A DNA stretch of 64,000 nt from Candidatus Poribacteria bacterium (GCA_965222225.1 CBDCTK010000002.1:4218126-4282125), one strand, 5' to 3'. Shown: positions 1-18,323, numbered from the stretch's first letter. A program made the numbers and translations. Notes: generated by a model not told the origin, from the sequence alone.

Positions 1-186
1 GCAGTAATGCGCTTGATTTTGATAAACCGATGACAATTCATCATAGAGATTCTTCCCTTGGAGGTTAGGTTTCTCATATTCGTCGTAAAAGACCCGGTAA
101 CCTCCCGATTTTAGAAGCCGAGCTAATTCTTTGGCGTGGAGGCGATCTTCTCCAGCAAAGGAAAGGGCGACATCGTACTTTTCCAT
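1..186 (-). CDS. TIR-domain protein, N-terminal part only; the gene runs off the window start.
   Basis: Reverse-complement of 1-186 translates MEKYDVALSFAGEDRLHAKELARLLKSGGYRVFYDEYEKPNLQGKNLYDELSSVYQNQAHYC. This matches the canonical bacterial TIR_2 N-terminal motif (D-V-x-LSFAGEDR ... VFxDE..L.pG). The ATG at 186 follows AAGGAG (gaaggagcacacaag ATG). It is absent from the ORF track because it is truncated by the window edge. Confidence 0.6.
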   Translation of the reverse strand, partial: MEKYDVALSFAGEDRLHAKELARLLKSGGYRVFYDEYEKPNLQGKNLYDELSSVYQNQAHYC

Positions 187-487
187 CTTGTGTGCTCCTT
201 CAACGAAACTTGAATACTGACCGCTGTAAGACTAGAGGTGAATGGTTCAATCTTACATCGCCGCTTGTTATGGTCGATTTCATTTTCGGCAACTGTTTAG
301 TCTAACGGTTTTTCGAATGATGCGAGGAATCGCTTATGATTTTAGCGCGTATTGTTAAACGTATGTCAACCTTATTTTTGCAAAGACATTCCCAGCGCTA
401 TTATCTACTTTACAAGTTATCGTAGGTATGCACATTCCGCTCCTCTGGAGCGGGAGAGACAGACACTCCTAGGCTACAGACATGGAC

Positions 488-676
488 AATCTCTATCGCA
501 CTCGTTATTCACTCGCTTGATCCCCGCTGGGGCTTTGGTGCACGGGGTTTTGGCGTTTCTATACACCTTCGGGATCTCTATCGCACTCGCTATTCGCTCC
601 CTTGATCCCACGCTGGGGCTTTTAGAGGCTGGTGCGCAGTGCGCACCCTACAAATGTACTTTTCAAACAGGTTCTT
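488..676. repeat. Copy of the dispersed modular intergenic repeat. It has two 'ctctatcgcactcg...cttgatcc...gctggggcttt' units and ends in the hairpin ggtgcgcagtgcgcacc followed by ctacaaatgtac.
   Basis: Sequence is shared with copies at 2741, 6871, 18324, 19565, 24891 (inverted), 51123, 52951 and 63341. The track ORF 352..678 runs through it and is rejected. Confidence 0.7.
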
Positions 677-713
677 AAAGTATCCTCAACCGCAAGAATC
701 ACGCTGTTCAAGC

Positions 714-1868
714 TCATGAGAGTGAACTCAGTTGATTGGGATGTTCGGGTTTGGTTCTCGAAAGCACGACTTCTGCCACCGTTAACCCTTCCTCAAGAAG
801 CGGCTTGACATCGGCAATATCGGAGGCTATCTCGACTGCCGTTCCCTCTTTTGCAGGGGTGCGCAGGAGAACTTCCCTGCCATCGATCCCTTGATCAGTC
901 AACAATGCGTCGCTATGAGTACTCACGAACACCTGTCGTCGCCGTCTTCGTTGCATCTTCGAAATCAGGGCGGCGAGTTGCGATACAATGCCGGCGTTCA
1001 AGGAAAGTTCGGGCTCCTCCAGTAGGAGGACGGACTCACTTTCAAGAAGCGTCCAAAGTAGCCCCAGAAGACGAAGTGTGCCGTCAGAAAACTGATCTTC
1101 GCGTTGCCAGCCCGCATTTGGACGCCAGTGGGAGTAAAGCGCCTGCAGGTGAGGACGGCCGGTAGATTCGTCACGGATGAATTCCAACTGCTCAAGCTGA
1201 GGCACGGCAAATTTGAGCGCTTGCTCAATAGTTTTTAAGCGTGACCGACGCGTTTTTGGCGTGATGCCCGCAACCCTCTCAAGAAATCCCTGCCCAAACG
1301 GGTCATCCTCAATGGCTCTTCCCTGAATCGAATTAGCAAACCGCAAGAGTTGAGGTACTAAATGAAGGTAAGTCACCGTTTGGAGGAAACGCGCGATTTC
1401 GCGAAAATCGGCGATGACATTGATCTGCTCAAGAAAGGTCTGCGTCAGTCGATCACGATCGGCTTCATCTTCTTCGGTTGGCCTAGCTAGGAGTTGCGCG
1501 CCGTTTTTCCACACGCACTCATGCGTGAGATAGGTGTGGCGGTGACCTCGTGGTTCTTGTCGAAATCCTAACGAGTATCGCCAAGTTGCGGAAGTGTCCG
1601 CATCGTCTGCAAGATGAATCTCAATCGTAATTTCCGGATCTCTCCGCGCCGCTAGATTTCGGATTTTGGAGAGGCCGCCCCGGTCCTTGACGGCTTTTTG
1701 AAAACCTCCGCCTTCAGACTTTACGACATCTCGGAGAAAACGGAAAATGTCAAGAAGATTCGATTTCCCGGACGCATTTGCGCCGACGATGAATTGACGT
1801 TCGCTGAGGTGAACATCAATCTCCCGAAAATTTCTCCAGTTCTTGGCGACGAGACGATTAATAATCAT
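714..1868 (-). CDS. AAA/ABC-type ATPase of the OLD/RecF-like AAA_15/AAA_21 kind, a stand-alone ATPase typical of defence islands.
   Basis: N-terminus MIINRLVAKNWRNFREIDVHLSERQFIVGANASGKSNLLDIFRFL holds a Walker A motif (GANASGKS). C-terminus has LLLEEPELSLN (Walker B / D-loop like) and VFVSTHS (H-loop). Length is 384 aa with no fused nuclease domain. Confidence 0.6.
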   Translation of the reverse strand: MIINRLVAKNWRNFREIDVHLSERQFIVGANASGKSNLLDIFRFLRDVVKSEGGGFQKAVKDRGGLSKIRNLAARRDPEITIEIHLADDADTSATWRYSLGFRQEPRGHRHTYLTHECVWKNGAQLLARPTEEDEADRDRLTQTFLEQINVIADFREIARFLQTVTYLHLVPQLLRFANSIQGRAIEDDPFGQGFLERVAGITPKTRRSRLKTIEQALKFAVPQLEQLEFIRDESTGRPHLQALYSHWRPNAGWQREDQFSDGTLRLLGLLWTLLESESVLLLEEPELSLNAGIVSQLAALISKMQRRRRRQVFVSTHSDALLTDQGIDGREVLLRTPAKEGTAVEIASDIADVKPLLEEGLTVAEVVLSRTKPEHPNQLSSLS

Positions 1869-2222
1869 GGCGTCTCCTTAAGTTTTTCTGATTGTCTTCG
1901 TGTGCTAAAATCATTTACCTCAGACGCTATATTCGTGTAGATTTCTTTGCTGCTTTGATCACTTTGATGAGGTACTCAATGTCTCCAAGAGTGACATACG
2001 GCGGTTGCTGCATTGCCTTGATAAGGCGTTGAGCACTCGCATTTTTTCGGTCGGTAGTGGCGCCGATTTATCCTCAGGTTGTTCGATTAGCATTGTGGCT
2101 TGCTGCTGCAATTCCGCTTTTCGCACGGTATCGTTCCTCCGTTTGCCAAATCCGAGGGAGAAGTGGTCTGTTTTACGATGCTAAATGCGTAATTCCCATG
2201 GTATTGGCTTTTCCCGTTCAGA

Positions 2223-2498
2223 CTAGGAGCGATAGGCTCTGCCACGCTGATAGATGGTTCTAATAATGCACTCCCGGTTCATTGTGTCTACACTGTAGAC
2301 AATCCGATAACTTCCGACGCGGTATCGGTATTGTCCACGATACTTGCCCTTCAATTTGACGATGTTTGGTCCGAACAGTGGATTCTGGGCTAACAGAGCA
2401 ATCGCCCGATTTACTCGGCGCTTCATATTGGTATCAAGCGCGTTATAGTGTTTCTCCGCCTCGGCGGTGAATAGCACATTAAATATCGCTTTCAACAT
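2223..2498 (-). CDS. Type II toxin of the RelE/ParE family.
   Basis: 91 aa, MLKAIFNVLFTAEAEKHYNALDTNMKRRVNRAIALLAQNPLFGPNIVKLKG...YRYRVGSYRIVYSVD...IIRTIYQRG. This is the ParE/RelE fold pattern. It overlaps the upstream antitoxin gene by 20 nt. Confidence 0.75.
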   Translation of the reverse strand: MLKAIFNVLFTAEAEKHYNALDTNMKRRVNRAIALLAQNPLFGPNIVKLKGKYRGQYRYRVGSYRIVYSVDTMNRECIIRTIYQRGRAYRS

Positions 2499-2736
2499 CA
2501 GCCCAACGCTTTAGCCTGCCCGCCTTGACATCCGTTTCCGCACGTTTCAGACTCTCGGCAACTTCCGGGTCACTCATTAACTCGTGAGTTGCTTCCCATG
2601 CTTCTTTATCTTGAAGATATGCCAGATAGTCATGCGCTATTTTCAGTTTGTCAGCGGAAAGTTGCTCAATTAACATTATCGCACGTTGCTTTAACTCGGT
2701 TTTGCGCATACATTTCTCCTTCCGTTTTCTGTGCAC
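2479..2736 (-). CDS. Cognate antitoxin, Phd/YefM/ParD-like.
   Basis: 85-aa acidic protein sitting directly upstream of and overlapping the ParE/RelE gene. Its C-terminus ELMSDPEVAESLKRAETDVKAGRLKRW resembles the YefM/Phd C-terminal pattern. Confidence 0.5.
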   Translation of the reverse strand: MHRKRKEKCMRKTELKQRAIMLIEQLSADKLKIAHDYLAYLQDKEAWEATHELMSDPEVAESLKRAETDVKAGRLKRWADVESDI

Positions 2737-2740
2737 TTTG

Positions 2741-2819
2741 TCTGAATCGCGGATTCAGGGATCTCTATCGCACTCGTTATCCACTCGCTTGATCGGATTA
2801 AGGGATTACGCGGATTGAG
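2741..2819. repeat. Partial copy of the dispersed modular repeat. It includes the near-palindrome tctgaatcgcggattcag, which abuts the toxin-antitoxin start codon.
   Basis: gtctgaatcgcggattcagggatctctatcgcactcgttatccactcgcttgatcggattaagggattacgcggattgag shares modules with 24891-25020 (inverted) and 3291-3352. Confidence 0.6.
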
Positions 2820-2935
2820 TTTGCCTGAAGCGCCGATACGCCTTATCAGTTCGCTTAAACTGCGAAGCAGGGCTAATTCTCCGTGTAAATTATAGCATAC
2901 CTTGCGCGGTTAAGGCGGCCGCGGGGTTGTTTGAT

Positions 2936-3118
2936 TCACGCCGCTATTTTAGCCATGCTGTCTAGCGCCTCTGCTACATCACGTACCGCAAGAAGGAACG
3001 CTTCTATGTCCTCGTCTTTCTCATAATCTTCAAGCGCAACGGAAAGGTATATCTTTGCGTCCTCCGGATCGCGTAGTTGTTCAATATGAAAGCCTTTGAA
3101 GCGTCTATAATTGCTCAT
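2936..3118 (-). CDS. HigA-like addiction-module antidote protein fragment (TIGR02684-like N-terminus). It has no partner killer gene and appears C-terminally truncated.
   Basis: MSNYRRFKGFHIEQLRDPEDAKIYLSVALEDYEKDEDIEAFLLAVRDVAEALDSMAKIAA. The DPE.AK.YL..ALED.D...FL.A.RDVA.A.G pattern is as I recall for that family. The C-terminal HTH part is not evident. No HigB-like ORF fits in the 76 nt upstream. Confidence 0.4.
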   Translation of the reverse strand: MSNYRRFKGFHIEQLRDPEDAKIYLSVALEDYEKDEDIEAFLLAVRDVAEALDSMAKIAA

Positions 3119-3197
3119 TTTCTAACTCCCTAGCAGCTCTGATCGCCCGAACCAAACTGCAACCGAAGCTCAAAACCCCGACTCGTGGGTTCGCATC

Positions 3198-3223
3198 ATC
3201 ACATATTGTCACATATTGTCACA
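3198..3223. promoter_or_regulatory. Three direct repeats of (A/T)TCACATATTG containing TGTCACA, spaced 10 bp apart. Candidate operator upstream of the HigA-like gene.
   Basis: atcacatattgtcacatattgtcaca sits 75-100 nt upstream of the start at 3118. The helical-turn spacing is typical of toxin-antitoxin autoregulation operators. Confidence 0.3.
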
Positions 3224-3290
3224 AATTTTCGGGAGAATGTCGCGATTCGGAGATCGCTCCTACAGAACTAGGGATCGGAGCGTGTTGCCT

Positions 3291-3352
3291 GCATCGCGGA
3301 ATGGCGGGGATTCCATCCTTGATTTGATTAAAGGATTACGCGGATTGAATTC
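3291..3352. repeat. Member of a second repeat module (ggcggggattccatcc...attaaaggattacgcggattgaattc).
   Basis: Related copies at 4684-4735, 6678-6762, 2790-2819 and 53161-53220. The 53161 copy contains the perfect hairpin ccatcttcga...tcgaagatgg. Confidence 0.5.
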
Positions 3353-3419
3353 GTTTGAGATGGATAGACCTAGACAGCATACCGTCATTTTTCATCTGAC
3401 TCGGTGAGATACTTCCTCT

Positions 3420-4643
3420 TTAGGTCTTATCGTTATCTTGCAACGATTTTGCGGCGAAAATGGCCAAACGTAATTCTTCTCCAAAGAGTTCATATAGAGG
3501 GGTTTTGCCGCTGAGCGCCTTGCTTTCATTGAGAATAATTCCGACCCCCTCACCCCTACGCTCCAGAAAGTGTCGCCTTGCTACATGTTTCTTCATATTA
3601 TCGTCTAGCGTAGTTTCTGACAGTAGGCGAGCGAGCAGTTCGTTACGCGTCGCTTGGTTGTAGGGCAAATCGTCCACCGTTAAGCTATTTGCCAATGCAC
3701 CCGGCGAATAGAGTTCTAGCCGGTCCGTGAACATAAACAGGCGAATTTTCGATCCGGCTTTTGAATAATCTCTATGTACAACTGCATTAACCAGTGCCTC
3801 AAAAACAGCTCTCATGCTGTATTGCGATCGTTCTATTCTGCCAATCTCCTTGCGAGCGGAGACTTGGTTATATCTTTCAACAAATTTGAATGCATCCACA
3901 ATCTGGCGATCCAGCGGTCCCCTAAAATCCTTAGCATCAATCTGGTAGTTCGCATCCTTTTCCACGCCATTGTAAAATACGGCTTGAATGAAACTGTTAT
4001 AGAGGTAATCGTCGGGGCTATCATGACACATCAACAGACCGGCTACCGAGGCGCGGTATTCATGACCATCTTTGACCAGCAATCGTCTTTTAAGTAGTAA
4101 ATCTTCTATCTTCTCACGATCAGCCGCATCCTCTGTGATAAATCGCTGATACAGCTTTTCCCTTAATGTTTCTTTGCGAGTGTTCGGGACAAACTGCTCA
4201 TCAAAAGAGATTCTATGTGCTTGTGATCGGCTTTGTAACAATCGCGCCAACTGCTCGGTGGCCATCTCTCTTTTACTGCTGCCTTGGCGGATGAAATAAC
4301 CGTTAGATGATTTATGAACAAACGGGCTCCGAGGCACTTCGATTTTTAAGAGATTTTTATTATCAACTTGCAGTTTTTCTGTAACAATGTGAACCATAGG
4401 GTCAATGTTGTCTCCGCATATTTCAACTGCTGTTTTCTCTGTCCTATCAAGATTCTGGCGGTCAATACCGACAATTTCACTATCATCGTCAACGCCGATT
4501 AGTATCACGCCACCGTTCGCGTTGGCAAACGCAGCGATTTCATCGCCGAGACTCTCTCTGTGATGCAACTCTCTTTTGAATTCAATCGTTGAGTCTTCTC
4601 CCAGATATATTTTTTCAATGAGGTCGGTCAGACTGTCGAACAT
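3420..4643 (-). CDS. AlbA_2 (divergent AAA / Schlafen-type) DNA-binding domain protein with a C-terminal HATPase_c_4-like region.
   Basis: N-terminus LIEKIYLGEDSTIEFKRELHHRESLGDEIAAFANANGGVILIGVDDDSEIVGI matches the PF04326 signature (EfK ... AfAN..GG.l.iGv.d.g.i.G). Total length is 407 aa. Confidence 0.55.
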   Translation of the reverse strand: MFDSLTDLIEKIYLGEDSTIEFKRELHHRESLGDEIAAFANANGGVILIGVDDDSEIVGIDRQNLDRTEKTAVEICGDNIDPMVHIVTEKLQVDNKNLLKIEVPRSPFVHKSSNGYFIRQGSSKREMATEQLARLLQSRSQAHRISFDEQFVPNTRKETLREKLYQRFITEDAADREKIEDLLLKRRLLVKDGHEYRASVAGLLMCHDSPDDYLYNSFIQAVFYNGVEKDANYQIDAKDFRGPLDRQIVDAFKFVERYNQVSARKEIGRIERSQYSMRAVFEALVNAVVHRDYSKAGSKIRLFMFTDRLELYSPGALANSLTVDDLPYNQATRNELLARLLSETTLDDNMKKHVARRHFLERRGEGVGIILNESKALSGKTPLYELFGEELRLAIFAAKSLQDNDKT

Positions 4644-4788
4644 CGCTCATTCTCCAGATGAATACGCTATTATCTGCATCACGGATTGGCGGGGATTCCA
4701 TCCTCGATTCGAAATCGGAATTACTGGGCGCTGCATTCTCAGAAATTGCATTGATTGGATTGGTTAGGACACTGGTGCTGCCTTCGCG

Positions 4789-5178
4789 TTACCTAGGCGC
4801 ATCAAATATGAGAAAGACAAAGACGATGAAGGCAATTTCGATTAGGTAGAAGATAACGAACGTGACAGAGAAAATTGCCGATACCCAGCTACATTTTGGT
4901 TTGTCTTTGTGTTTGAGAAGATCCATCTTAAAGTCGGTATCGGATTGGACTCTGACCTCGTCGTATACTTTTCGAAATAGCCTTTCTTGCCAAAGGAAAT
5001 ATCCGTTCAAGATCCAAAAGCCCATAACGGGGAGAATCAACGCCAAAGCAAAATAGGGATTCTCAACCTCGTGTTTAGGGATCAACACCATGGCTGCCAC
5101 AATAATTATCATGCTCCAACTTTTTACCAAGAAACTGTTTCTTCCTAATCGGTTTATGACAGAATGGGTTATTTTCAA
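4789..5178 (-). CDS. Small integral membrane protein, paralog A of the gene at 10804..11235.
   Basis: 129 aa with 3 predicted TM helices. It is about 70% identical to paralog B (shared RLGRNS..VK.WS, NPYF.LAL.LPV.GF.IL.GYFLWQERLFRKVYD, QSDTDF.MD.LKH..KPKC.W.SAIFSVT.VIFYL.EIAF). The similarity extends about 40 bp past the stop. Confidence 0.5.
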   Translation of the reverse strand: MKITHSVINRLGRNSFLVKSWSMIIIVAAMVLIPKHEVENPYFALALILPVMGFWILNGYFLWQERLFRKVYDEVRVQSDTDFKMDLLKHKDKPKCSWVSAIFSVTFVIFYLIEIAFIVFVFLIFDAPR

Positions 5179-5671
5179 ATTCTCGACTGCCTTTTCAGTG
5201 CAGTTCGTGGTTTTTTACTCCAGTATCAAGTTTAGAAGCTGGCGATATATCGGGCTAGTTCATTCTCAGTTTATTTCCTAGTGTAATCCTTGGCTCGACT
5301 TTTTTGCATTCAGCAAGTTTAACAGACCGTGTAGATCAAACCATTCAGAATAACGGGTGAGATTTTAGCAATTTGGTCTGTTTTGCCGACCATTGAGAAA
5401 GTCTACCCTGTGGACGCGAATGCCTGTTTCACCCACCGCGGTGTATCGGGAAAGGTCGCCGGTGGTTTTTCGAACAGCCTTTCACCTATCAGGACATACT
5501 ATCGCCTACGTCGTCCATTCGGTTAATTGGTCGTTTGAAGTTATTTGATTACTACCCATTTAGTCGCTTGATCGCCATTCACTCCTTTAATCTCATGCTA
5601 CAAATGTACAAAGTCGATCTTAGGATTTGCCCGACATGCTAAGTTTGGAAAAGCACCGGGCAGGGAGCGGA

Positions 5672-6289
5672 TTAGTTGTTGGACGAGGTTTCCAAGGCTT
5701 TTGTGTGCCCGTTCGTGCCCGGAATCAGCGCTGCCACTTCATCTCCGTCTTCGTTGCCAGGATGGGCAAGAGACGGGTGATTCCCACCCCCAAATTGTGC
5801 GAGGATTCCGCGGAGTTGCGTAATCGCGGTTGCAATATCGGGTGAGTCAATACGCTCGAGTGCGAACGTACTCAGTGACTGAGTCATGGTCAAGAGTTCG
5901 CGGAGGTCTTTAACGGTTGTGATTTCCACCTTCGCGTTATTTAATGCTTGCATAATGCAGTCGGTAAAACGGTCGGTCGCTTTGTCGATTTTACTATGCA
6001 AGTTCGCGAGGTATTCCTGTTTGCATTCTTGGTAGATTTCACCCCACTTGGCACGGTTGAATTTTTTGTTGTTGGGATTCATCGTGCGAATGCGTTCGCG
6101 TATTTGATCGCGGCTCAGGTGGAATTCCTTATCGGTCACGTGCTCCTGCACTTTCTCCAACAAATCTAGAACCTGGTTGGTTGTGCAGCATTCGGCAAAC
6201 CTGCGTATGATATACTCGCAGACAAATGCCTCTTTCGAAAAATCGAGCGGCTTTTGTAATTTATTCACGTTTTCCTCCTCAAAAAGCAA
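5672..6289 (-). CDS. Hypothetical protein.
   Basis: 205-aa ORF on the island strand with no motif I recognise. Confidence 0.3.
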   Translation of the reverse strand: MLFEEENVNKLQKPLDFSKEAFVCEYIIRRFAECCTTNQVLDLLEKVQEHVTDKEFHLSRDQIRERIRTMNPNNKKFNRAKWGEIYQECKQEYLANLHSKIDKATDRFTDCIMQALNNAKVEITTVKDLRELLTMTQSLSTFALERIDSPDIATAITQLRGILAQFGGGNHPSLAHPGNEDGDEVAALIPGTNGHTKALETSSNN

Positions 6290-6677
6290 TTAGTGGCGAG
6301 CCACGGGATTGGATTATGGATGATACCCCAAATTCGGCGGTTTATCCAATAAAAGCCCCTTCAACAACGCAGAAAACCGCCTTGTAATCTTGTAACACAG
6401 TTTTGCAATATTTTCCGTGCAGGCATGGTGTTGTGAGATGTTGCCATTGCGGGACGAGGAGATCCCCGTTGGGTGGAATCTGTATGTAATCTCTATGTTG
6501 TGCCCGATGAATCTTATAACTCAAAACTACGTGTGCTGCCGGGAATAAGCTGGACGAATGATACGACATGTATGTTAAGTTTGTCAGGGTAAATCTTCTG
6601 ATTAAGAAGACGGCGGCTGAATGGGGTTCAATCGGCGAGGTTCATCACCGGGCGAGATGTGGCTGCGAGTTTTGGGA

Positions 6678-6762
6678 ATTAGGGATTGGCGGGAATTCTG
6701 TCTCAAAGTCTGTATCACGGATATTCGCGGATAAAAGGATTACGCGGATAAAATTCTTCAGC
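6678..6762. repeat. Copy of the second repeat module.
   Basis: tctgtatcacggatattcgcggataaaaggattacgcggataaaattc. Confidence 0.45.
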
Positions 6763-6870
6763 GATTAGTAACCTAAGAGCTTGTTTGAATAATAGATAGT
6801 CAAGTCATGTCTGGTCATTTGAGGAAGGGCTTTTCATGTTCTTGTCGTCACACGCACACTATTCACCTGT

Positions 6871-7070
6871 CGGATCTCTATGGGAGCTCTATCGCGGTCA
6901 CTACGGGATCTTCTATCGCCTTCGTTAACCACTCTCAGTTGATCGCTCGTTATTCACTCGCTTGATCCCGCGCTGGGGCTTTTAGAGGCTGGTGGGATCT
7001 CTATCGCATTCGCTAATCGCTCATTTGATCGCAGTGCGCACCCTACAAATGTACTTTTCAAACAGGTTCT
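6871..7070. repeat. Full-length copy of the modular dispersed repeat ending in gcagtgcgcaccctacaaatgtacttttcaaacaggttct.
   Basis: Its last 60 nt are nearly identical to 617-676. It has multiple internal cgcttgatc units. Confidence 0.7.
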
Positions 7071-7248
7071 AAGGCTTTCTATCAGTGATAAATATTTTTT
7101 TCATGTACTTTTACTTCAGTGATTACGTGATGACGTGGATTAGGGTGTGCGGGGGCGGGGGCGGACTTAGGGTGAAGATTATGAACTAAAGGCGAAAGAA
7201 CGCGTTCGTAATGGTACTGGGAGAAAACCCTGATAGGCTTAGGTGGAT

Positions 7249-7731
7249 TTACTGAATATTCTCAAGCTCGGTTAAGTCTTCAACTTCTGCCATTAAAGAC
7301 AGTGCTTTTGCGTAACCACGCAGTTTTTCTTGTAATTCTTCAAGTTCACACCTGAACTGTCTCACTAGTGCCTCATCATTAAATGCATCTTCTAGTGATA
7401 GTTTGTGCCACTTCGCCGTAAATGGTCGTATGACTTGATTTAATACAGGTATGGCGATTTTTGCAAACTGAATAGATCCAGAACCCTTGTCTTTCAAAAT
7501 ATCACGTGTTATTTGAAATAAGGAATAAACGCTAGTAAGTGCTGTTTTATCATCTCCAACATCAATCGGGAGTGGTTGAGTTGTGATTCTAGTCAGTAAT
7601 TCAATGTACAATTCCCAAGCTGCTTCCTTGTCATGTTCTTTGGGCTTGAATTCAGCCTTTAACACATGAATATTAAGTTTCAATTGTGAAAGTTCTAGCC
7701 CAGAAATGGAAAGCCATTTTGAAAGTTTCAA
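7249..7731 (-). CDS. Hypothetical protein, distal gene of the TIR cluster.
   Basis: 160 aa, same strand, with no recognisable motif. Confidence 0.35.
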   Translation of the reverse strand: MKLSKWLSISGLELSQLKLNIHVLKAEFKPKEHDKEAAWELYIELLTRITTQPLPIDVGDDKTALTSVYSLFQITRDILKDKGSGSIQFAKIAIPVLNQVIRPFTAKWHKLSLEDAFNDEALVRQFRCELEELQEKLRGYAKALSLMAEVEDLTELENIQ

Positions 7732-7892
7732 ACCTACCTCCTAATGGGTGACTCCGCAATGTATACATTTTGAATTGTACTTCTTAACTTACCCCCATCC
7801 TTTAGACAGTAAATGACGAGATTTAAGTAATGAAAACCGACTAAACCTGGTCAAATTGCTGGGCGTAAGTTCAAAAGAGGGCAAGCATTCTT

Positions 7893-10570: not shown

Positions 10571-10803
10571 GCATAGTGCGATAACCGAAGAAGGGAGGCA
10601 GTGGGAGGCAAACCCTTTTCCCGATAATCAGGGCGAGGGTAGATTGCTATCCACTCAGTTGATTGTTGGCTTGATCTGTCCTGCCGGCAGTTGGGTAGCG
10701 TAGGCGGTTTGCGGCACACGGGGGTTACGGCACACGGGGAGTGCCTACTACAATGATGCCACTTAGCGCCGTGTATTCATTGATAATGTGTTGACCGGAT
10801 TGG

Positions 10804-11235
10804 TTAGGGAGCTGGAAGTGTTTTCGCATCAACTATGAAGAACACAAAAACCGTGAAGGCAATTTCCAACAAATAGAAGATTACGAGCGTGACTGAAAAG
10901 ATTGCCGATAGCCAGTTACATTTCGGTTTGTTTCTGTGTTTGAGCGGATCCATCTGAAAGTCAGTGTCAGATTGGATTCTGATGTCGTCGTAGACTTTTC
11001 GAAACAGTCTTTCCTGCCAGAGGAAATATCCGTCAAGAATCCCGAAGCCTAGAACGGGAAGAACAAGCGCCAAGACAAAATACGGGTTTTGTACATCGTG
11101 CTTAGCGATGAGTGCCATCGCCGCGATAATAAGAGCTAGGCTCCAAGTTTTGACCCACAAGCTGTTGCGTCCTAGACGGTCAATCACGGCTTGGATTATT
11201 TTCAAGTGTTCTACGACTTTTTCTGTGCCATTCAT
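10804..11235 (-). CDS. Small integral membrane protein, paralog B. Candidate toxin or effector (PanT-like?).
   Basis: 143 aa with 3 predicted TM helices. It is a paralog of 4789..5178 and lies 181 nt downstream of the Panacea-domain gene. Confidence 0.5.
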   Translation of the reverse strand: MNGTEKVVEHLKIIQAVIDRLGRNSLWVKTWSLALIIAAMALIAKHDVQNPYFVLALVLPVLGFGILDGYFLWQERLFRKVYDDIRIQSDTDFQMDPLKHRNKPKCNWLSAIFSVTLVIFYLLEIAFTVFVFFIVDAKTLPAP

Positions 11236-11415
11236 GGGCTAATCCTTCAACACGAACACTTGAAATCTCGTGGCGTCTTTAGGGTTAATTCTCTTTCGAG
11301 CGTTCACTACTTCAAGAAGAATCGTGCCTAGTTAGCCACAGGCGGATACTTAACGCAAGGCAAAATACACGCCAGTCGCTGGGAATTGTTACTTCCCTTG
11401 CGGCAATGTGGATTT

Positions 11416-11970
11416 TCAAACAGATATAAGGGAAAGATCTTCAAGAAACGAACATACCTTTTCGATCTGTGAATTATTGAGATTCCATCCATACTCTTGA
11501 GCGATTTGTCGAATCTGCTCTGTTGTGGTACTTCTTTGCTGTTTGACAATGTAACAAACTTTTGCAGCGATTGAGAGCATGTTAAAATCGTGCGCCAATT
11601 TTCCCTTGTTCAGCGTGTGAAGTTCTCTCTGCCAATCCGTATATCCAGCCTCCTTTCTTATCTCCATCATTACGATGTCTCCATCAGGAGTTAAAGAATA
11701 CGTATGGCGGCGGATCTCGCCAAAGATATTCTGATCTGATTCAAAAGTCTCTTTTTCCTCGTTCAGGAAACGTGCGTTGACGAGAATATCCAAATTTTCT
11801 GCAACTAAACTGCTATAAGGCCCATAGTAGTGTGGGCGGAACCCATAGTCGACTCCCTTTAATTCCGAAAGAAAATAAAGTTTCTTTTGGAGGATAGTTC
11901 GCCCCTGAAGGCGTTTACCTTCCTCATTTCCAATGATAAGCAAAATCAAGTCTTGAATGTGCATACACAC
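11416..11970 (-). CDS. Panacea-domain (DUF4065 / SocA-like) protein. Putative antitoxin.
   Basis: ILQKKLYFLSELKGVDYGFRPHYYGPYSSLVAENLD matches the Panacea core (LQKLLYF...G...GPYS). Confidence 0.45.
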   Translation of the reverse strand: MCMHIQDLILLIIGNEEGKRLQGRTILQKKLYFLSELKGVDYGFRPHYYGPYSSLVAENLDILVNARFLNEEKETFESDQNIFGEIRRHTYSLTPDGDIVMMEIRKEAGYTDWQRELHTLNKGKLAHDFNMLSIAAKVCYIVKQQRSTTTEQIRQIAQEYGWNLNNSQIEKVCSFLEDLSLISV

Positions 11971-12009
11971 TCCTTTTTTTCAGGGACAATGTCCCTTGAC
12001 TCTCCCTTG

Positions 12010-13335
12010 TTAGAGATTAAGCAGAATATCTTGAAGCTGCAATTCATCTTGTTGTCTCTTCCAACCCTCCGGCGGGACATAAACTTGAATGGTTACCAAG
12101 TCAGTTGCATCAGAGGGCAGGCGGGCTAAAATGATCTCATAGTCACTAAGTTTTCTTAAGTCACCTTGCTTTTCATCGAAAATTATAATCGCTTCTGGAT
12201 CGAGGCTATAGCTTTGACTTCCGTAGTTGGGGTTCCGGATGTGGAGCTTGTTAACAATTACATCATCGGGGTCGATTTCAAGATCTTCTGCAATTCGTCT
12301 TTCCCATTTCCGTATTTGCTCACCATCTGCTTGGTGGAGTCGTCTGTTGTCTATCGGATTCTGTATATTGTTTAATGATAATTCACCAATCATCTTGAAC
12401 AATCTTCTTTCATAAAGTCGTTCAAATATGTTGCGGGCATTTGCTTGGGCGCACCCTTTTAGGATATCAATCAGCCGTTCGTCATGATACCTCATGTAAT
12501 TTTCTATAAATTCGGATGTTCCATCATATTTGTAAAGTCGTTCCAGTTCCGTATTCTTCTCTCTGATCGCAAGTTCGATTCCGCGCACAATCATCGCATC
12601 AGAGATTGATCTTACCCGATGGTGATATACTTGTTGTGTCATGTGGTGTTTTGCAAGTAGAAGTTGTTCAAGGGCGAGAATACCTTCATCGCTAATTGCC
12701 AAAACTGATTCATGCCCTTTGTAGTGTACCTGGAATGACTCAATGATTTTCTCCAGATCGTAAATCCCATATTTTACGCCAGCGAAATAGGAATCCCGAA
12801 GTAGATAATCCATTTTGTCTGCATCCAGATCGCTGGAGACAATGTCACGCCGAAAGTCCTTCGTTGCCTTCCCTTTAATCATGTTAACGACGAAATCGCG
12901 TTCTTCATCACTAAGGATCGCGCAAATCTCAGTGTCATTGTTAACAATGTCAATTGTAACTTTCTCGTGGATTTTTTCCCGGTCTGAACCTTCACTCGCT
13001 TCGTTTGGTGCATGCTGATCCAAGAGGTATTCGGAAACGTGGCTAAACGGTCCATGACCAATGTCGTGTAGCAGCGCTGCAAGCCGAATCTGTTCGCGCT
13101 CCTTATCGGTTATCTTGAGCCGATTGCAGATATGTCCGGCGATGTGCATTACACCGATTGAGTGTTCGAAACGGGTGTGCAAGGTTCCGGGATACACAAG
13201 AAACGCCATCGCCAATTGGCGAATCCGACGAAGCCTTTGGAAAGCTCTGGTATTGACTAAATTAACTTCCTTTTCTGAGAGTGCAATGAAACCGTGAATC
13301 GGGTCTCGAATCTTATGCGCAGGTTTTTTCATCAA
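12010..13335 (-). CDS. HD-domain phosphohydrolase, dGTPase/SAMHD1-like.
   Basis: IRDPIHGFIALSEKEV..VNTRAFQRLRRIRQL ... TRFEHSIGVMHIAGHI ... LLHDIGHGPFSH. This is the classic HD motif with a dNTP-triphosphohydrolase-type N-terminus. Confidence 0.7.
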   Translation of the reverse strand: MMKKPAHKIRDPIHGFIALSEKEVNLVNTRAFQRLRRIRQLAMAFLVYPGTLHTRFEHSIGVMHIAGHICNRLKITDKEREQIRLAALLHDIGHGPFSHVSEYLLDQHAPNEASEGSDREKIHEKVTIDIVNNDTEICAILSDEERDFVVNMIKGKATKDFRRDIVSSDLDADKMDYLLRDSYFAGVKYGIYDLEKIIESFQVHYKGHESVLAISDEGILALEQLLLAKHHMTQQVYHHRVRSISDAMIVRGIELAIREKNTELERLYKYDGTSEFIENYMRYHDERLIDILKGCAQANARNIFERLYERRLFKMIGELSLNNIQNPIDNRRLHQADGEQIRKWERRIAEDLEIDPDDVIVNKLHIRNPNYGSQSYSLDPEAIIIFDEKQGDLRKLSDYEIILARLPSDATDLVTIQVYVPPEGWKRQQDELQLQDILLNL

Positions 13336-13583
13336 AGAAGGACCAGATTAAATTATACTATACTTATGTTTAGTATTTCAAGAAAATTTTGGAATAATTT
13401 AGTAACAGTGTATCATTACTCCTCCAGAAAGATAGGGGAACGACAGAACTAAACTCGTTGGCGATTTTTTGAACCGTGGATTAAAGCATTTTACGGATAA
13501 AGTCTATACAAGAAGGCGACCTGAATGTATCCTGTATAAAGAGCGTGTTCCGATATTCAGAGAAGTATTTGGTATTCTTCCGG

Positions 13584-14438
13584 TTAGGTGGTGTCGAGGA
13601 TATCTATCACCTTAAATACAGTGAGCACGAACCTACGAAATTGGTTTAGGTAACATTCTTGTTCGTCTCTTTGCCAGTCTTGTGGCAAAGCCTTGGGGTG
13701 ACCAGCCTCATTTCGGTTGAGACGATATATCCGGGCGATTCCTTCTAGCTTATCCCTGAGTTCACTTCGAAATGTTGAATCTGTAATTGGCTTGAAAATT
13801 TGGTTGACGTTGTCCGACAAGTAGCCTGTTAGTGCTGATATGCTTTGATGTTTGCCAATAGGCTCCTGATAATGGGCATCATGCCTAATAACTGCTTCTG
13901 CCAGACAATTGATAGCTCGTTCGGACGCTCCGCCTAAACAGATCACGGAGGAGATGTAGGAACCTTCTTGACAAGTTCGCAAACTCTCCAAATAGTATTG
14001 CCCAACGACGTAGTCAAGGTTGGGTATGTTCTCTTTGAGGGACTTGACTATGTCGTGAGCATCATCAAAAAGAATAAGTATGCCATTATGATCGTCAGAT
14101 TTTTCGCCAAGGGAGGTGAAGCAACAGCAAGGGCGGTTGGAATAACTAGGATCCAAAGCATCCATCAACAATCCCCGTCGCTTAAGTTGCGCAATCGCTT
14201 CATAGAATTTCAGAAAAAAACTCGGATCCTTGGTTTCTCCTTGAACTTCATTTTCAGCACATAATTGCTTTTGGAGATGGGGTAAAGAAAAGCGAATAGG
14301 TCCTTCTAATTGATTTCCTCGATTTTCGGCTTGTTTTTTCATGTCTTGCTCTATTCCTTTCACTAGACGGAAAACAAGCCTTGCAAGTTCAGCAACGGTA
14401 ATCTGTTCTCTCTGTTCTTGATTCAAAGATGATCGCAT
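13584..14438 (-). CDS. Hypothetical protein with a C-terminal Rx4H motif, possibly HEPN-like.
   Basis: IARIYRLNRNEAGHPKALP contains R-N-E-A-G-H, which fits the HEPN Rx4-6H signature. The rest is unassigned. Confidence 0.3.
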   Translation of the reverse strand: MRSSLNQEQREQITVAELARLVFRLVKGIEQDMKKQAENRGNQLEGPIRFSLPHLQKQLCAENEVQGETKDPSFFLKFYEAIAQLKRRGLLMDALDPSYSNRPCCCFTSLGEKSDDHNGILILFDDAHDIVKSLKENIPNLDYVVGQYYLESLRTCQEGSYISSVICLGGASERAINCLAEAVIRHDAHYQEPIGKHQSISALTGYLSDNVNQIFKPITDSTFRSELRDKLEGIARIYRLNRNEAGHPKALPQDWQRDEQECYLNQFRRFVLTVFKVIDILDTT

Positions 14439-14683
14439 TATATTCTCCCATTATAGATGCAGTATTGTTTCAGATCAAGCCAATATTTTTCTAGGCGGAA
14501 TAAAGTTAACATCAATTGGCACGGGTGGTAAATCTAGTGCTCTATTATTATGATAGGGATTCGGAGAACATACAGCTATCTACATTCGGTTCCTGACCTC
14601 GGATTGAAACACTATCGTACATTGGCACAACCTTTCCATAGCACGCGGTTCTAATCCATGTAATCTGTTAAATTCGTGATTCA

Positions 14684-17600
14684 GATAGACTTCAAACTCC
14701 TCGCCTTACTCAACCGCGCCTCGACAAGATTCACAACCGCCTCATAAACCCCGTCCCGTTCCCCTTGCGTGAGGTCGAGGGCATCAAAGACGATTGCATC
14801 AAGGGCGCGGCGGTCATCAGATGGTTCCAGCATCTCCCATGAAGATGATGCGAAAATGGCTTCATCGTCAAACACGATTGTCGTTGGGTCTAGACAAAAC
14901 AATTCCGCAACTTCATAGGTCTGTATTTTCAGCAATCCTCCGCCGAAATTGGAACGGCCAGCCATATTCACCATAAGTTGAAACAAAGATGAATTCACGG
15001 AGACACACAAACGCAATGTCAAGCCTGAATCCGTGTGTACCTCTTGAAAGTTGTCGCTTGCGAAACAACTGTCCGGAGCATAAAGTGTTCTTGCTGTTGA
15101 AGAAATCAAGTAGTTGAAAGCAAGGTGTGGAATCCGCCGTTGCCCCAAATCCCACCATCGCGCCCGACCTCGGCAACTCGGCCTCTCATCAAATTCTTGC
15201 GACTCACCCCACTCAATGTATTTCAGCGCTGCCGTGCCGTCCAAGTCTTCTTTGTCTTTCCCGCAGATAAACAGCTTAAACTTCAGCCGGCTTGGGTCGA
15301 TTAGGATGCTTTTGCATTCTCGCGGGCTTTTGATGACAGGATTCAGGAACTCCTCCTCGATTTCCCATTGACGGATGGCGTCGGCATCAAGGTAAAAAAA
15401 CTCGTTTGCTCCCGTCGTAAAACCACGTCGCACCTCTGCAACATCGCCCAAACGCACCAGTTTGTCCCTTCCCTTCTTCAGAATTGTCCAGTAGATGTCG
15501 GGTGCGCGGAGGTACTTGCCGCCCCACTTGTCGCCGGTGTACTTTGCCGTGGCAGACTTATCTGTGGTTTGATTATCTCCGCCTGATTCCAGGAGCGCGC
15601 GTTGGGAGACGGGGAAAATGCGGTGTTCTTCCGTGCTCTTTCGTTCACTAGTCTCCTCAACCTCCTCGAAAATAACCGGTGACAGCACACTCTCAAAGGG
15701 GGTTTTGAACATCACAAACCGTGCGATCTCATCTAATCCCGACCAGCGTTTTTCGTCGGGTGCGGAGAAGAGGCAGATGACGGTGTTCACATCGGCGGAG
15801 GCGAAGGAGCGCCGCGACTGGTTGTCAATAATCTGCTTGATGTGGCAGTGCTTGAGGAGGAATTCCTGAAGGTCTTTTCCGTAGCCGACATCCAGCCACG
15901 AATTGGAGGTGATGAAACAGAACGAGCCTTTCGGATTGAGGAGGGAAAGTCCGTGAAAATAGAAATAGATGTAGAGGTCGCTTTTGGCGTCGAGCTTGTG
16001 GGAGACAGCAGCGGCGGGGTTGTCCGGTTTGATATCCTTCTCGCGTTTGTACCCGAAGAAACGCGGGAAGGCTTGATACACGGCGCGGGCAAGTTTTGTT
16101 TTGTAGGCTTTCTTGTTAGCGGTTGTAATGTCTTCGCGCGGGAGCTTCGGATCAGCGATGTTCTCCTGCCGTACGTACGGCGGGTTGCCGATGACAATAT
16201 CGAATCCGCGTTTATCGTCGGAAAAGATTTCGACAAAGGCGATGTCCCAGACAAATGGCGAAGTAGGTGCGTTCGCGAGAGCGCCCCGTGCCTCTACAAG
16301 ACGGTCGTAGTCTATGGTCAACACCTCAATCTGTTTGCTCCATTCTATTTCTTGGCGTTTGAGTTTCTGGCTGGTTGTCTCATCAATTGTCCCTTCAATC
16401 GTGATCTGCTGTGCTTTGAGATCATTGATAAGCTCCTTTAGGTCGTCAATTTGCTTTTTGACATCTTCGGCGTGTGTATCCACGAGATCTCGGAAAAGGT
16501 TCAACTCTTCCTGTTCTAGCGCTTGTTTAGACCTGTAGCGACAGGTTTTGTCGTTGTTGAAGAATTTGAGTTTTTCAGTTTTGAGACGGGTGGTACGTGC
16601 TTTTAATGATCTCGGTATCCCACTGAAATCGGCGCGGATTTGGACGAGGTTCATGCCGCCGATTTCTTGAAGGAGGCCATCGCCGCATCGGATGTTGAAC
16701 GAGAAGTGCGGGAGGAGAGGCTCTATTCGTAATTGGAGTTCAGCGCGGGGAATATCGGCGTCAATGATGAGTGCCAGCCAAAGTCGCAGTTCTGCCACGT
16801 GGCACGCCCACTCCATTACGTCCACGCCGTAGAGATTCTTCCCGATGATGGCTTTCTTGCGATCGAAACTCAATTGTTCATACCCAAGTACGCGATTTGC
16901 TCTATCCTGCAGATCGTCAAGGATATGCAGCATCCCGACCAGAAATGAACCGGAACCGCAGGCTGGATCGACGACGGCGAGTCCTTTAAGACGCTCATCA
17001 AGCTGATTCCAGAGGTTCTTTTCTCGGAGTTGTTGATCTGCACGTGTTCTTTCGTCGGGTTCAAAGGCGAAAACGGCTTTGTAGAGGGCAGATTTATTTT
17101 CTTCTCCCAAGTGATTTGCCAGGTTGTCCACCAGCGCGTCGGCACATCAGGTCGATTTCTGTGCGAGGGGTGTAGAAGATGCCGGCATCACCCTGTTTAT
17201 CCGTCTCCTCCGAGACGTTGACCAGGCTCTCATACACCTTTCCAATCATCTCCGGATCGACGGCGACCTCTTGATCGAGCGGGCTGTCTTCGGCGATGGT
17301 GAAGTTGTAGCTTTCAAGGAAATTGAAAATACTCTTAAAGCGAGAGTCAGAGATTTGAAAGTCGTGTTGGCTGTCGAGGTCGTTCTCGGTGAACAGCCCG
17401 CCGTTGAGGTAAGGGGCTGAGGCTAACGCCCTTCGAATCTCGTCCGGGAAATGGCGGTGTCCGCCGTGGAATCTGTTATTGAACGCCTCAAAGAACATGA
17501 CGTTGAGCCAATGTTCAACGAACGAGTCGACCGGCTGATCTGTCGTCTGATAGGACTCCCAGAACGTCCGTAGAAAGTCGGTGTTGTCACCAAGCCAACC

Positions 17601-18287
17601 TTTCCGCTGGATGAAGTAGAGAAACATACAGCGGTTGAGAAACTGCAAAGCGTAATCGTGCGCCCATTGGTTGTCATCCGTCTGATCCGCCAAATCATCC
17701 TGCAAACGCTGAAAAACGGATTTGTAGGCGTCGAAGAAGCCTTTGGTAACGGCTTCAACGTCAAAGGCTTTGTCGTGACGGCTTTGAATTTCAAGCGGCG
17801 AGTCTAAGGATTCTGCATCCAGCATCGCAATCCGCTCTGAGGCGGTACGAAGTTTTTCACGCGGGCTAATCGTAATGCGGCGGTAGAGTCGGCGTTTCTC
17901 CGGATGTTCTTCGTCGAATTTGGCATTGACGAAGTGCCAGTCGGTTTGCTCCCGGTTGCTGAACATGAAAAGGGCGTAGGGGTAGTCTTTCAGGAGACGA
18001 GAGATGATGGGTCGTTCGGCGGTCAGGGGCAGGCGGTCCGAGTCGAGACGGGTATAGATGAGGTGAAAATCGGAGTCATTTCCGCCTGTCGCAAATAGGA
18101 GCGGGTCTTCAGCCGTGCGAGAAGTGTTTGACTGGTTCCTGTCGCCAAGGGAAATCGGGGCGTTTTGGTAATCGTAGTTCAATTCCGTACAGAAGAGTTC
18201 TCTGAGGGGTTTGATTCCGCGGAAGTTTTGGAGGATGTCGTGGATTCTTTGTTCGTCGGGGAGGTCATGTGGCATAGATGTTCTCAC
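14684..18287 (-). pseudogene. Roughly 1200-aa gamma-class N6-adenine DNA methyltransferase (Type IIG/IIL or PglX-like) split by a single-base frameshift into 397-aa and 816-aa ORFs.
   Basis: The upstream ORF ends with motif X (GIFYTPRTEIDLMCRRA). The downstream ORF, in another frame, carries motif I (VVDPACGSGSFLVG) and motif IV (VIGNPPY). The frames switch within 17120-17140, where TGA in the downstream frame lies at about 17137-17139. No homopolymer sits at the site. Confidence 0.65.
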
Positions 18288-18323
18288 AATGCATTTTTTT
18301 GTAAGTTGGGAGTCGGGAATCGG

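Follow-up and report, generated by a model that had tools for sequence, protein, structure and literature searches.

What kind of locus fills the first 18 kb of this stretch of Candidatus Poribacteria DNA, and why should so many unrelated modules stand there in a row? The window, the whole 64,000-nucleotide stretch that was analysed, comes from the metagenome-assembled genome of a sponge symbiont. An earlier note on the sequence had described positions 1–18300 as an accessory island packed with defence and toxin–antitoxin modules, with every gene up to 18287 on the minus strand. That description was confirmed in part. The strand and the gene order were borne out by ORFs and homologues: all stop-to-stop ORFs in 1–18287 with family or homologue support lie on the minus strand, and ORFs on the plus strand are nested within larger genes of the opposite strand or fall on repeats. 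Most of the labels also held, in that profile searches supported the calls for TIR, HD, methyltransferase, ATPase, ParE and AlbA_2/Schlafen-like proteins; the Panacea label lacked such support. GC content is lower in the region, at 0.461 in 1–18300 vs 0.496 elsewhere in the window. GC falls to 0.435 in 4667–14690 and to 0.422 between 7.2 and 10.2 kb, where GC3 is as low as 0.29. All gene and relic coordinates given below are on the minus strand.

To ask if the content is variable, the region was compared with related loci. Three of these (L001, L002 and L003) occupy the same chromosomal site, marked by DUF4377, ferritin, Rieske and iron ABC transporter genes; their flanks are 98% (L001) or about 91% (L002 and L003) identical to that of the window. 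All three differ from the window in gene content between methyltransferase and TIR_2/helicase end. Because the relatives keep the site but differ in cargo, the region is a variable island, and the rapid turnover proposed for it is supported. Neither of the grounds on which the earlier note would have given up its reading applies as a whole, since three of its four key calls have profile support and the relatives do not share the content. About 10 kb of the window (4667–14690) stands where L002 has a single Ppl gene, and the segment from 7.2 to 10.2 kb has no homologue among 85 related loci. Even the methyltransferase is only 87% identical to that of L001, against 98% for the flank, which we take as a trace of recombination. 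The right edge of the island lies in the gap upstream of the methyltransferase, and synteny with the relatives is regained from 18603. Position 1, however, is not the left boundary; the island continues beyond the left end of the window.

What had been overlooked is that the methyltransferase belongs to a pair of conserved anchors, inside which the island would lie. The methyltransferase gene (14681–18287) belongs to the Eco57I/MmeI/PglX-like N6-adenine type (Pfam Eco57I/MmeI_Mtase/N6_Mtase, and PADLOC) and would specify about 1200 aa, intact homologues being 1192–1199 aa. The frameshift described earlier was confirmed: a 2-bp deletion at about 17139–17140, where six of six relatives have two extra bases, splits it into ORFs of 816 aa (14681–17131) and 397 aa (17094–18287). 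The protein aligned with the PADLOC REase_MTase_IIG profiles only from about profile position 66 on, and no D...ExK motif was seen by eye in its N-terminal 150 residues. Upstream is a 316-bp gap with a dispersed-repeat copy (18326–18365), at a place where relatives have two or three small genes. With a frameshift in the methyltransferase and these small genes gone, the scaffold is probably dead here.

The second anchor, a PLD(HKD)-nuclease/SNF2 helicase, lies in relatives just left of the position equivalent to the window's start, and this side of the slot was observed in L002, L003, L004 and L006. The relatives' helicases are 1107–1113 aa, with PLDc_2, SNF2-rel_dom and Helicase_C domains, and match PADLOC 'HKD+Snf2' at 3.7e-79. 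From these relatives we infer that the helicase gene lies just beyond position 1 in the present genome. In a census of 50 related loci from eight phyla (helicase identity of 45% or more, with 3 kb or more of sequence in view upstream), the methyltransferase was upstream of the helicase on the same strand in 38 and on the opposite strand in none. Two further loci had it 12.5 and 15.8 kb upstream, and six had neither a methyltransferase nor recognised cargo upstream. It is this gene neighbourhood that suggests a link between the two proteins. The helicase is 60–70% identical across phyla. The gap is 5 bp in L048, the shortest case, and reaches 15.8 kb at most, and its cargo differs by lineage: PIN, Uma2, nucleotidyltransferase, OLD-type ATPase–TOPRIM and sigma-70-like proteins were found, as were Ppl in L002 and TIR, AlbA_2, HEC-01 and HD proteins in Poribacteria. 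Genes like those for HEC-01A and AlbA_2 also occupy the slot of L026 (Verrucomicrobiota). The window's cargo in the gap is estimated at 15.5 kb, with about 19 ORFs and relics.

At the left end of this cargo, a TIR_2 gene that runs on leftward has its N-terminal 61 codons in 1–183 (Pfam TIR_2 4e-6, 27.7 bits vs a cut-off of 28; PADLOC PDC-S66). The fragment is 82–89% identical to the TIR_2 genes of L002 and L003; the full homologue in L002 (202 aa, 82% identical) has the TIR_2 domain, and in relatives the gene adjoins the PLD-SNF2 helicase on its upstream side. The next gene, formerly labelled an OLD/RecF-like ATPase, encodes an intact 384-aa HEC-01A-type ABC ATPase (714–1868; AAA_21/AAA_15, Pfam 7e-36; PADLOC HEC-01A 1e-153). 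The HEC-01 pair is incomplete, since the TOPRIM partner HEC-01B is cut to its first 14 codons (676–717). By tblastn, 13 of these 14 residues are identical to the intact HEC-01B of L005, a protein that matches PADLOC HEC-01B at 5e-57; intact genes are also found in L006, L007, L008, L015 and L064. The missing part is replaced by about 190 bp of repeat, common to L002, that consists of copies of a dispersed repeat of about 40 nt (GGGATCTCTATCGCACTCG...) with a palindromic tail (486–675). A ParE-family toxin follows (2223–2498; Pfam ParE_toxin 3.8e-9). The antitoxin claimed for it would be an 85-aa ORF immediately upstream (2479–2736), which overlaps it by 20 nt and matched no family in profile searches; the proteins of the pair are 96–99% identical to those of L002. 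The orphan HigA-like fragment (60 aa, 2936–3118) was recovered as a weak 'addiction module antidote' match (Pfam dnstrm_HI1420, 0.007, profile positions 9–50 of 90) that is also present in L002 and L009. An intact 407-aa AlbA_2/Schlafen-like protein (3420–4643; SLFN_AlbA_2 1e-25, HATPase_c_4 6e-17) is found again in 12 or more related loci.

The two small membrane proteins that had been called paralogs are 72% identical, and both match PADLOC PDC-M50A: copy A at 4789–5178 (3e-30) and copy B, intact, at 10804–11235 (1.6e-33). Codon comparison with copy B showed that the ancestral ATG of copy A is now ACG, which leaves copy A with only a TTG start ten codons in. Plasmid homologues of copy B adjoin TIR genes, and the M50A–M50B pairing was confirmed on Vibrio and Klebsiella plasmids. 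Here that pair is incomplete, with two M50A copies and, 1.2 kb from copy B, an N-terminal PDC-M50B/ThsB-type TIR fragment of about 60 aa (9432–9635; PADLOC PDC-M50B 7e-21, profile positions 1–59 of 162). The 'TIR cluster' of the earlier note resolves into a single ThsB-like gene, cut short by a premature stop, and two relics. The ThsB-like gene (8389–9039; Pfam ThsB_TIR 9e-20) has 143 codons (8608–9039) before an in-frame TAG at 8608–8610 and 73 more after it in the same frame. The read-through product aligns at 51% over 201 aa with a 204-aa Klebsiella plasmid TIR protein, and the alignment crosses the stop. A Thoeris system was considered and rejected, given the premature stop and the lack of any ThsA-like gene in the region by profile searches. 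Directly upstream is a predicted 126-aa membrane protein (9043–9423) unrelated to PDC-M50A.

Smaller features are scattered between these genes. An ORF for a 205-aa protein (5672–6289) has homologues in six related loci. It is followed by a 960-bp geneless stretch containing a second dispersed-repeat cluster (6882–7078), and then by two ORFs of 160 aa and 72 aa (7249–8111), whose GC3 values, 0.29 and 0.36, are the region's lowest and which have no homologue in any related locus. A lysine/arginine-rich ORF of 103 aa (9804–10115) has no family match. Next to it lies a degenerate TIR_2 N-terminus (10152–10322; 38% identity over 34 aa to the start of the L002 TIR_2). Beside this relic is another, a copy of the methyltransferase gene's final 56 nt (10515–10570), 98% identical to 14690–14745 and 4.2 kb downstream of the live gene's end. 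Together the two relics, a further trace of recombination, mark a former methyltransferase-to-TIR_2 junction, and a methyltransferase followed directly by TIR_2 is the arrangement present in L015.

The right-end cargo includes the 184-aa protein (11416–11970) for which the Panacea label (DUF4065/PanA) had been proposed. That label was not supported: there was no Pfam match even at E≤5, and Panacea is absent from all of the 120 homologues listed. By fold the protein best matches the toxin-binding C-terminal domain of DarG ('YwgA' in JGI naming), and it is better described as DarG-C-terminal-domain-like. The adjacent HD protein (12010–13335; Pfam HD 2e-14, HD_assoc_2 3e-24), previously thought dGTPase-like, is of the SAMHD1/EF1143 dNTP-triphosphohydrolase type by full-length similarity to solved dNTPases (2hek 1e-48, EF1143 4e-35, SAMHD1 1e-31); its score with the NCBIfam anti-phage dGTPase model is 23 bits, far under the 400-bit cut-off. 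In six related loci, which come from five other genomes, the HD gene adjoins the gene for the DarG-like protein. The 284-aa protein noted for an Rx4H motif (13584–14438) is a winged-helix and HEPN protein with a conserved E...R-N-x3-H motif, of which R-N-x3-H is invariant across 38 relatives; it combines a four-helix HEPN fold with the Rx4-6H pattern. Promoter-like sites lie just upstream of the HD gene (13381–13352, 11/12) and the HEPN gene (14478–14450, 10/12), in a scan whose overall yield, 33 found vs 24.2 ± 5.0 expected, was not clearly above chance.

In all, roughly one third of the cargo has decayed. The truncated and frameshifted genes that had been claimed for the region are real, and comprise the split methyltransferase, the HEC-01B stub, the ThsB stop, the M50A start loss and the relics. 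The interspersed repeats are likewise present, at the three places given above; such repeats are found throughout the window, outside the island as well as in it.

The arrangement is of a kind already known, here in an unusually large form. In embedded defence ('guilt by embedding'; Payne et al., bioRxiv 10.1101/2024.01.29.577857), cargo lies between genes of a multi-gene methylation-based system, as is proposed here, and in the same orientation, co-orientation with the host system being the published norm at 96.7%. Families defined there recur here, namely HEC-01A (1e-153), PDC-M50A and a PDC-S66-like TIR. Unlike those cases, the host here is a two-gene methyltransferase and HKD-SNF2 pair, and a single gap holds the estimated 15.5 kb of ORFs and relics (12.5–15.8 kb in sister species). 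The region is probably a large instance of embedded defence, with a scaffold that lacks the ATPase of its named relatives. Among these relatives are the Type-2 BREX-related (BR) systems (NAR 2026, PMC12839542), which also have an N6-adenine methyltransferase and a helicase with an HKD (PLD) endonuclease N-terminal to the Swi2/Snf2 core, as seen in the helicases of our related loci. Type-2 BR systems have a predicted RM-like logic, with auxiliary nucleases, OLD-type ATPases, HEPN and Schlafen proteins inside their loci; they are defined around a DUF499 AAA+ ATPase and have a DUF3780 gene in 98% of taxa (PMC12839542). As to DUF499, there was no other ORF of at least 700 aa within 6–10 kb of the pair in L048, L050, L051 and L063, and by ORF size and precomputed Pfam none was called outside the cargo in L002–L005, L086 and L087. 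DUF3780 was not matched either, Pfam searches of small slot and upstream genes giving PIN, Uma2, nucleotidyltransferase or nothing.

Other systems are more distant. DISARM class 1 is similar in that the methyltransferase matches DrmMI (about 1e-17) and the helicase DrmD (3e-34), with an N-terminus like DrmC/PLD, but no core DrmA or DrmB (DUF1998) was present in any locus examined, and the PLD domain, rather than having a gene of its own, is part of a fusion with the SNF2 helicase. Hma (PMC8565338) also combines a helicase with a methylase, in a scaffold where embedded defence genes are frequent, and there is a secondary HmaA match (3.6e-24); the Hma methylase, however, is an m5C enzyme and Hma has its own ATPase, whereas here the methylase is of the Eco57I/MmeI N6-adenine type and the scaffold has no ATPase. 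Classical defence islands, or the 'genomic sink', as outlined by Makarova et al. (2011), share the clustering and fast turnover of defence and toxin–antitoxin genes and the frequent pseudogenes. The present region differs from the loose neighbourhood of that outline in being unidirectional and bounded by two conserved genes.

We think it probable that a two-gene RM-like defence locus encloses the region, the gap being a recombination-tolerant slot for co-oriented defence and toxin–antitoxin cassettes. The methyltransferase/specificity protein at 14681–18287 would be the first anchor and the PLD(HKD) nuclease fused to an SNF2 helicase, presumed to lie beyond position 1, the second. Between them the slot would hold HEC-01A, the ParE pair, the AlbA_2/Schlafen-like protein, two PDC-M50A copies, the ThsB-like TIR, the SAMHD1-like HD enzyme with its DarG-like partner, and the winged-helix–HEPN protein. 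Recombination may exchange cassettes, with the conserved methyltransferase and helicase genes as its anchors and the short dispersed repeats as an aid. Each intact module would most likely be a self-standing abortive-infection or growth-arrest backup with its own promoter, the proposed effects being NAD+ depletion, RNA cleavage and dNTP depletion. It is possible, though we do not favor the idea, that cargo and scaffold instead work as a coupled unit, in the manner of PrrC with EcoprrI or BrxU with BREX, so that restrained or co-regulated effectors fire once a phage disables the pair. On this view the slot would be no passive sink but a 'backup layer' favoured by selection. Such coupling is consistent with the strict co-orientation over 18 kb, with the recurrence of the same cargo families beside the scaffold in many Poribacteria and, for two of them, in L026, and with published precedents (discussed in bioRxiv 10.1101/2024.01.29.577857 and PMC12839542). 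Against it, cargo content varies even between close relatives, several modules have promoter-like sites of their own, cargo homologues stand alone on plasmids, and several cargo genes are intact while the scaffold methyltransferase is broken.

A bolder extension of the slot reading, which we regard as rather unlikely, is that the methyltransferase–gap–helicase arrangement is a dedicated, phylum-spanning platform for the capture and display of defence cassettes, integron-like but working via homologous recombination. The conserved anchors would then be homology arms for swapping whole cargo arrays between lineages, and sponge symbionts would have taken these arrays to 12–16 kb. An integrated mobile element carrying defence genes, whether prophage remnant, integrative island or transposon, is very improbable. 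The reduced GC content, lowest at 7.2–10.2 kb, and the dispersed repeats might suggest one, but the repeats span the whole window, and both ends are conserved genes at a chromosomal site conserved in several species. Further, searches of 1–18600 gave no integrase or transposase and no tRNA or att-like long repeats, and there was no Rfam family or plasmid match across the region; the sole transposase found lies outside it. We give equally little credence to the proposal that the decay reflects assembly or sequencing error and that the genes are intact in the cell. The source is a metagenome assembly, and fragmented gene calls are common in the clusters of the protein family concerned. The 2-bp deletion, however, is in non-repetitive sequence and is not a homopolymer slip, and the 816-aa ORF stands as such in the deposited 5.6-Mb record. 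Nor could base-calling error yield relics such as the 56-nt methyltransferase end, and the repeat that took the place of HEC-01B is common to L002.

Judged from relatives, the island's methyltransferase is probably one of two anchors between which the defence genes are lodged. Through an exact protein match of the flanking PPK2, a close relative (L001) was found that is 98% identical to the window over 18603-37519. A search with the repaired methyltransferase recovered the window's own 816-aa ORF along with intact homologues of 1192-1199 aa. Two further close relatives, L002 and L003, match the window to the right of the island (two DUF4377 genes, ferritin, a Rieske protein, an iron ABC transporter and PPK2), and in both the order is methyltransferase, 8.2-8.5 kb of co-oriented genes, a 202-aa TIR_2 gene, and a 1107-1109-aa PLDc_2 + SNF2 + Helicase_C protein. 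Window 1-212 aligns to this TIR_2 gene, and the window therefore starts within the last cargo gene. Assuming the L002 spacing of TIR_2 and helicase, the load in the window is estimated at ~15.5 kb. The helicase closes the co-oriented run in the related loci L004 and L005 as well. A helicase search across species-representative genomes gave 80 loci, and linkage was counted in the 50 that reached 45% identity or more and had 3 kb or more of sequence visible upstream. A methyltransferase homologue lay upstream of the helicase on the same strand in 38 of the 50, and on the opposite strand in none. The linked loci came from Poribacteria, Verrucomicrobiota, Cyanobacteria, Acidobacteriota, Chloroflexota, Armatimonadota and Planctomycetota, with weaker cases in Actinomycetota; in two of the remaining loci the methyltransferase was 12.5 and 15.8 kb upstream. 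The gap between anchors is only 5-58 bp in some Poribacteria (L048, L062, L050), and in other lineages one or two genes fill it, i.e., PIN, PIN + Uma2, a nucleotidyltransferase, an OLD-type ATPase-TOPRIM, or a sigma-70-like protein. Sister Poribacteria have cargo of 12.5-15.8 kb, so a load of such size is usual for the clade rather than peculiar to the window's genome. Cargo families of Poribacteria recur in the slot of a Verrucomicrobiota locus (L026 4819-7975), where a HEC-01A-like ATPase (49% identical) is accompanied by a HEC-01B-like gene and a stretch resembling AlbA_2. Two to three conserved small genes (~263, 172 and 142-158 aa) sit directly upstream of the methyltransferase in the close relatives (L001 18461-20288, L002 7880-9992, L003 7683-8998); they had no Pfam or PADLOC match, and could be regulators or additional scaffold components.

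Several known systems resemble the scaffold in part. An N6-methyltransferase and an HKD-Swi2/Snf2 helicase are likewise found in Type-2 BREX-related systems, whose definition centres on a DUF499 ATPase plus a DUF3780 gene (PMC12839542); neither gene was seen in the scaffold by ORF size, precomputed Pfam and a Pfam scan of small genes. DISARM class 1 has domains in common with the scaffold, which is without DrmA and DrmB. The HEC and PDC families matched here derive from the embedded-defence study (bioRxiv 10.1101/2024.01.29.577857), and the HEC-01A match raised the possibility that the scaffold was Hma. This identity was rejected because Hma has an m5C methylase and an ATPase of its own (PMC8565338). 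Given the partial likeness to Type-2 BREX-related systems and DISARM class 1, and not to Hma, we treat the methyltransferase/helicase pair as a putative variant of a known scaffold type with an unusually large embedded load. If this is true, a simple two-gene restriction-like pair would mark a spot for finding new anti-phage genes in many phyla, adding to the Hma, BREX, DISARM and Type I hosts already exploited for 'guilt by embedding'. A cyanobacterial source, suggested by the repeat-like look of the sequence, was discarded, HIP1 (GCGATCGC) occurring once vs 1.6 expected and the related genomes being Candidatus Poribacteria; megablast of 1-18400 gave zero plasmid matches, and a phage search with the unique ORF at 7249-7731 gave zero matches. 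No structured RNAs or tRNA integration sites were found.

Most of the gene labels in the earlier note were backed by Pfam and PADLOC, gene functions being assigned from families and neighbourhoods alone. On the minus strand lie the TIR_2 N-terminus (1-183), an ABC ATPase (714-1868; PADLOC HEC-01A, 1e-153), ParE (2223-2498) with an overlapping upstream 85-aa ORF, a weak HigA-like fragment (2936-3118), AlbA_2 + HATPase_c_4 (3420-4643), ThsB_TIR (8608-9039), HD + HD_assoc_2 (12010-13335) and the Eco57I/MmeI-type methyltransferase as two ORFs (14681-17131 and 17094-18287). Two small membrane proteins, 72% identical to each other, both match PDC-M50A; the 126-aa membrane protein has no detectable kinship to that family, and no plasmid homologues were found for it or for the 205-aa protein. 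The frame downstream of ParE (1962-2180, minus strand) contains 'KAELQQQATMLIEQ', which by eye resembles the 85-aa antitoxin start 'KTELKQRAIMLIEQ', and could represent what is left of another copy of the antitoxin. The ThsB-like TIR gene (8389-9039) has ~50% identical homologues on 147 plasmid records; the closest are on tiny (3.6-5 kb) Klebsiella and Raoultella plasmids, e.g., NZ_CP084814.1 1614-2228, and on these small plasmids the gene is solitary, its neighbours being an HTH gene plus a YoeB/Phd pair. The HD and HEPN genes are preceded by promoter-like sites, which are consensus matches from a scan that as a whole was not clearly above chance.

In comparison with solved structures, the sequence of the HD protein groups with Aquifex 2hek, Enterococcus EF1143 and SAMHD1, apart from the curated anti-phage dGTPase. 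The Panacea label did not hold: the protein that bore it (184 aa, 11416-11970) had zero Pfam matches even at E<=5, and any relevant Pfam domain was present in 0 of the 120 homologues listed for it; we call it DarG-CTD-like. Six related loci, belonging to five other genomes (L003/L020, L010, L013, L031, L058), have its gene after the one for HD, and in further loci it adjoins AlbA_2-type genes. Presumably ywfO (HD) and ywgA are likewise neighbours in Bacillus subtilis; a literature search on YwgA/YwfO yielded nothing usable. Some relatives encode the AlbA_2/HATPase_c_4 protein as a fusion with an N-terminal AAA_34 (~850 aa; L004 2204-4756, L086 21575-23588), and because this fusion is preceded by M50A and a DarG-CTD-like gene, there is a hint that the DarG-CTD-like protein pairs with differing effectors. 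Candidate defence genes in the window are the putative winged-helix-HEPN protein (284 aa, 13584-14438), the predicted pairs of SAMHD1-like HD enzyme with DarG-CTD-like protein and of membrane protein with ThsB-TIR, and three ORFs without relatives.

As had been claimed, every ORF within 1-18287 that is supported by family or homologue is on the minus strand. Plus-strand ORFs there are nested in larger minus-strand genes or lie on repeats. One 63-aa ORF (3216-3407, plus strand), which overlaps dispersed repeats, is the counterpart of a 73-aa opposite-strand gene called directly after AlbA_2 in L002 (17581-17802); it is probably spurious, yet is the sole plus-strand gene candidate in the island. 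Listed ORFs cover ~70% of the island, with gene-free gaps of 0.5-1 kb at 184-716, 2737-3422, 5179-5674, 6290-7251, 8112-8610 and 10116-10806. The GC check that had been suggested showed a deviation: 0.461 for 1-18300 vs 0.496 for the remaining window, falling to 0.435 in 4667-14690 and 0.422 in 7200-10200, with mean GC3 of 0.48 for island genes and 0.53 for flank genes.

The proposed decay was borne out, with frameshift, in-frame stop, lost start and truncated genes all identified. The methyltransferase lacks 2 bp at ~17139-17140 relative to six relatives, in a context that is not a homopolymer, and the small genes upstream of it in relatives are absent, a repeat copy lying inside the 316-bp gap. 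Six relatives have an intact HEC-01B, the ATPase's TOPRIM partner; here it is down to 14 codons, with repeats in its place. The ThsB-like gene is interrupted by an in-frame TAG, and across this stop its read-through product aligns with a TIR protein of 204 aa from a Klebsiella plasmid (51% over 201 aa). In M50A copy A, ACG stands at the position of copy B's ATG, and of a PDC-M50B-type TIR gene the first ~60 codons remain. The ATPase, ParE pair, AlbA_2, M50A copy B, 126-aa membrane protein, DarG-CTD-like, HD and HEPN genes appear intact. Broken genes were seen in relatives, e.g., methyltransferase as 855 + 354 aa (L041 6406-9986), helicase as 576 + 557 aa (L045 9791-13276) and frameshifted HEC-01B (L004 9335-9948), and protein clusters of both anchors hold many fragments. 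Pseudogenes seem frequent at the locus clade-wide.

Comparison with L002 and L003 agreed with the variable island that had been proposed, the cargo differing and the flank matching. Window 565-4667 is collinear with L002 at 83% identity, and 4667-14690 occupies the place of a single Ppl gene in L002 (PADLOC 4e-143). What the window has in common with L003 is confined to the HD/DarG-CTD pair, one M50A, TIR_2 and the ParE region, and 7.2-10.2 kb had no homologue among the 85 related loci compared. The methyltransferase is 87% identical to the L001 copy while the adjoining flank is 98% identical, a difference that points to replacement of the methyltransferase allele through recombination. At 10515-10570 the final 56 nt of the methyltransferase gene recur (98% identical), adjoined by a degenerate TIR_2 start at 10152-10322. 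Because these relics match the arrangement in the related locus L015, where TIR_2 immediately follows the methyltransferase, the HEPN, HD, DarG-CTD-like and M50A block (10.8-14.4 kb) is most likely a later insertion ahead of an older junction. On this reading, the relics preserve the sequence of events at the locus. Sponge symbionts, Candidatus Poribacteria among them, have long been noted as defence-rich, and the locus would give a concrete view of such symbionts gaining defence genes at a single hotspot and later losing them.

Two tandem DUF4377 lipoprotein-like paralogs (18605-19441; 300-nt repeat, 84% identical) form the island's right border. L001 has a single copy, as against two in L002, L003 and L086; even in more distant species (L086, L087) the methyltransferase is adjoined by a DUF4377 gene. 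Outside the island, a 1.25-kb insertion (29955-31203) relative to the 98%-identical L001 contains a 287-aa ORF (30065-30928) that is 37% identical to plasmid IS1595-family transposases, the sole mobile-element gene found. A dispersed repeat of ~40 nt occurs at several cargo boundaries and recurs elsewhere in the window, as well as at several related Poribacteria loci; copies in the window are at 486-675, 2758-2828, 3289-3358, 4674-4712, 6882-7078, 18326-18365, 19636-19685, 24952-24990, 51129-51177, 52950-53087 and 63268-63413. The repeat is intergenic, with the core GGGATCTCTATCGCACTCGYTATTC..CTTGATCC, often followed by the palindrome GGTGCGCAGTGCGCACC, and the family looks REP- or MITE-like.
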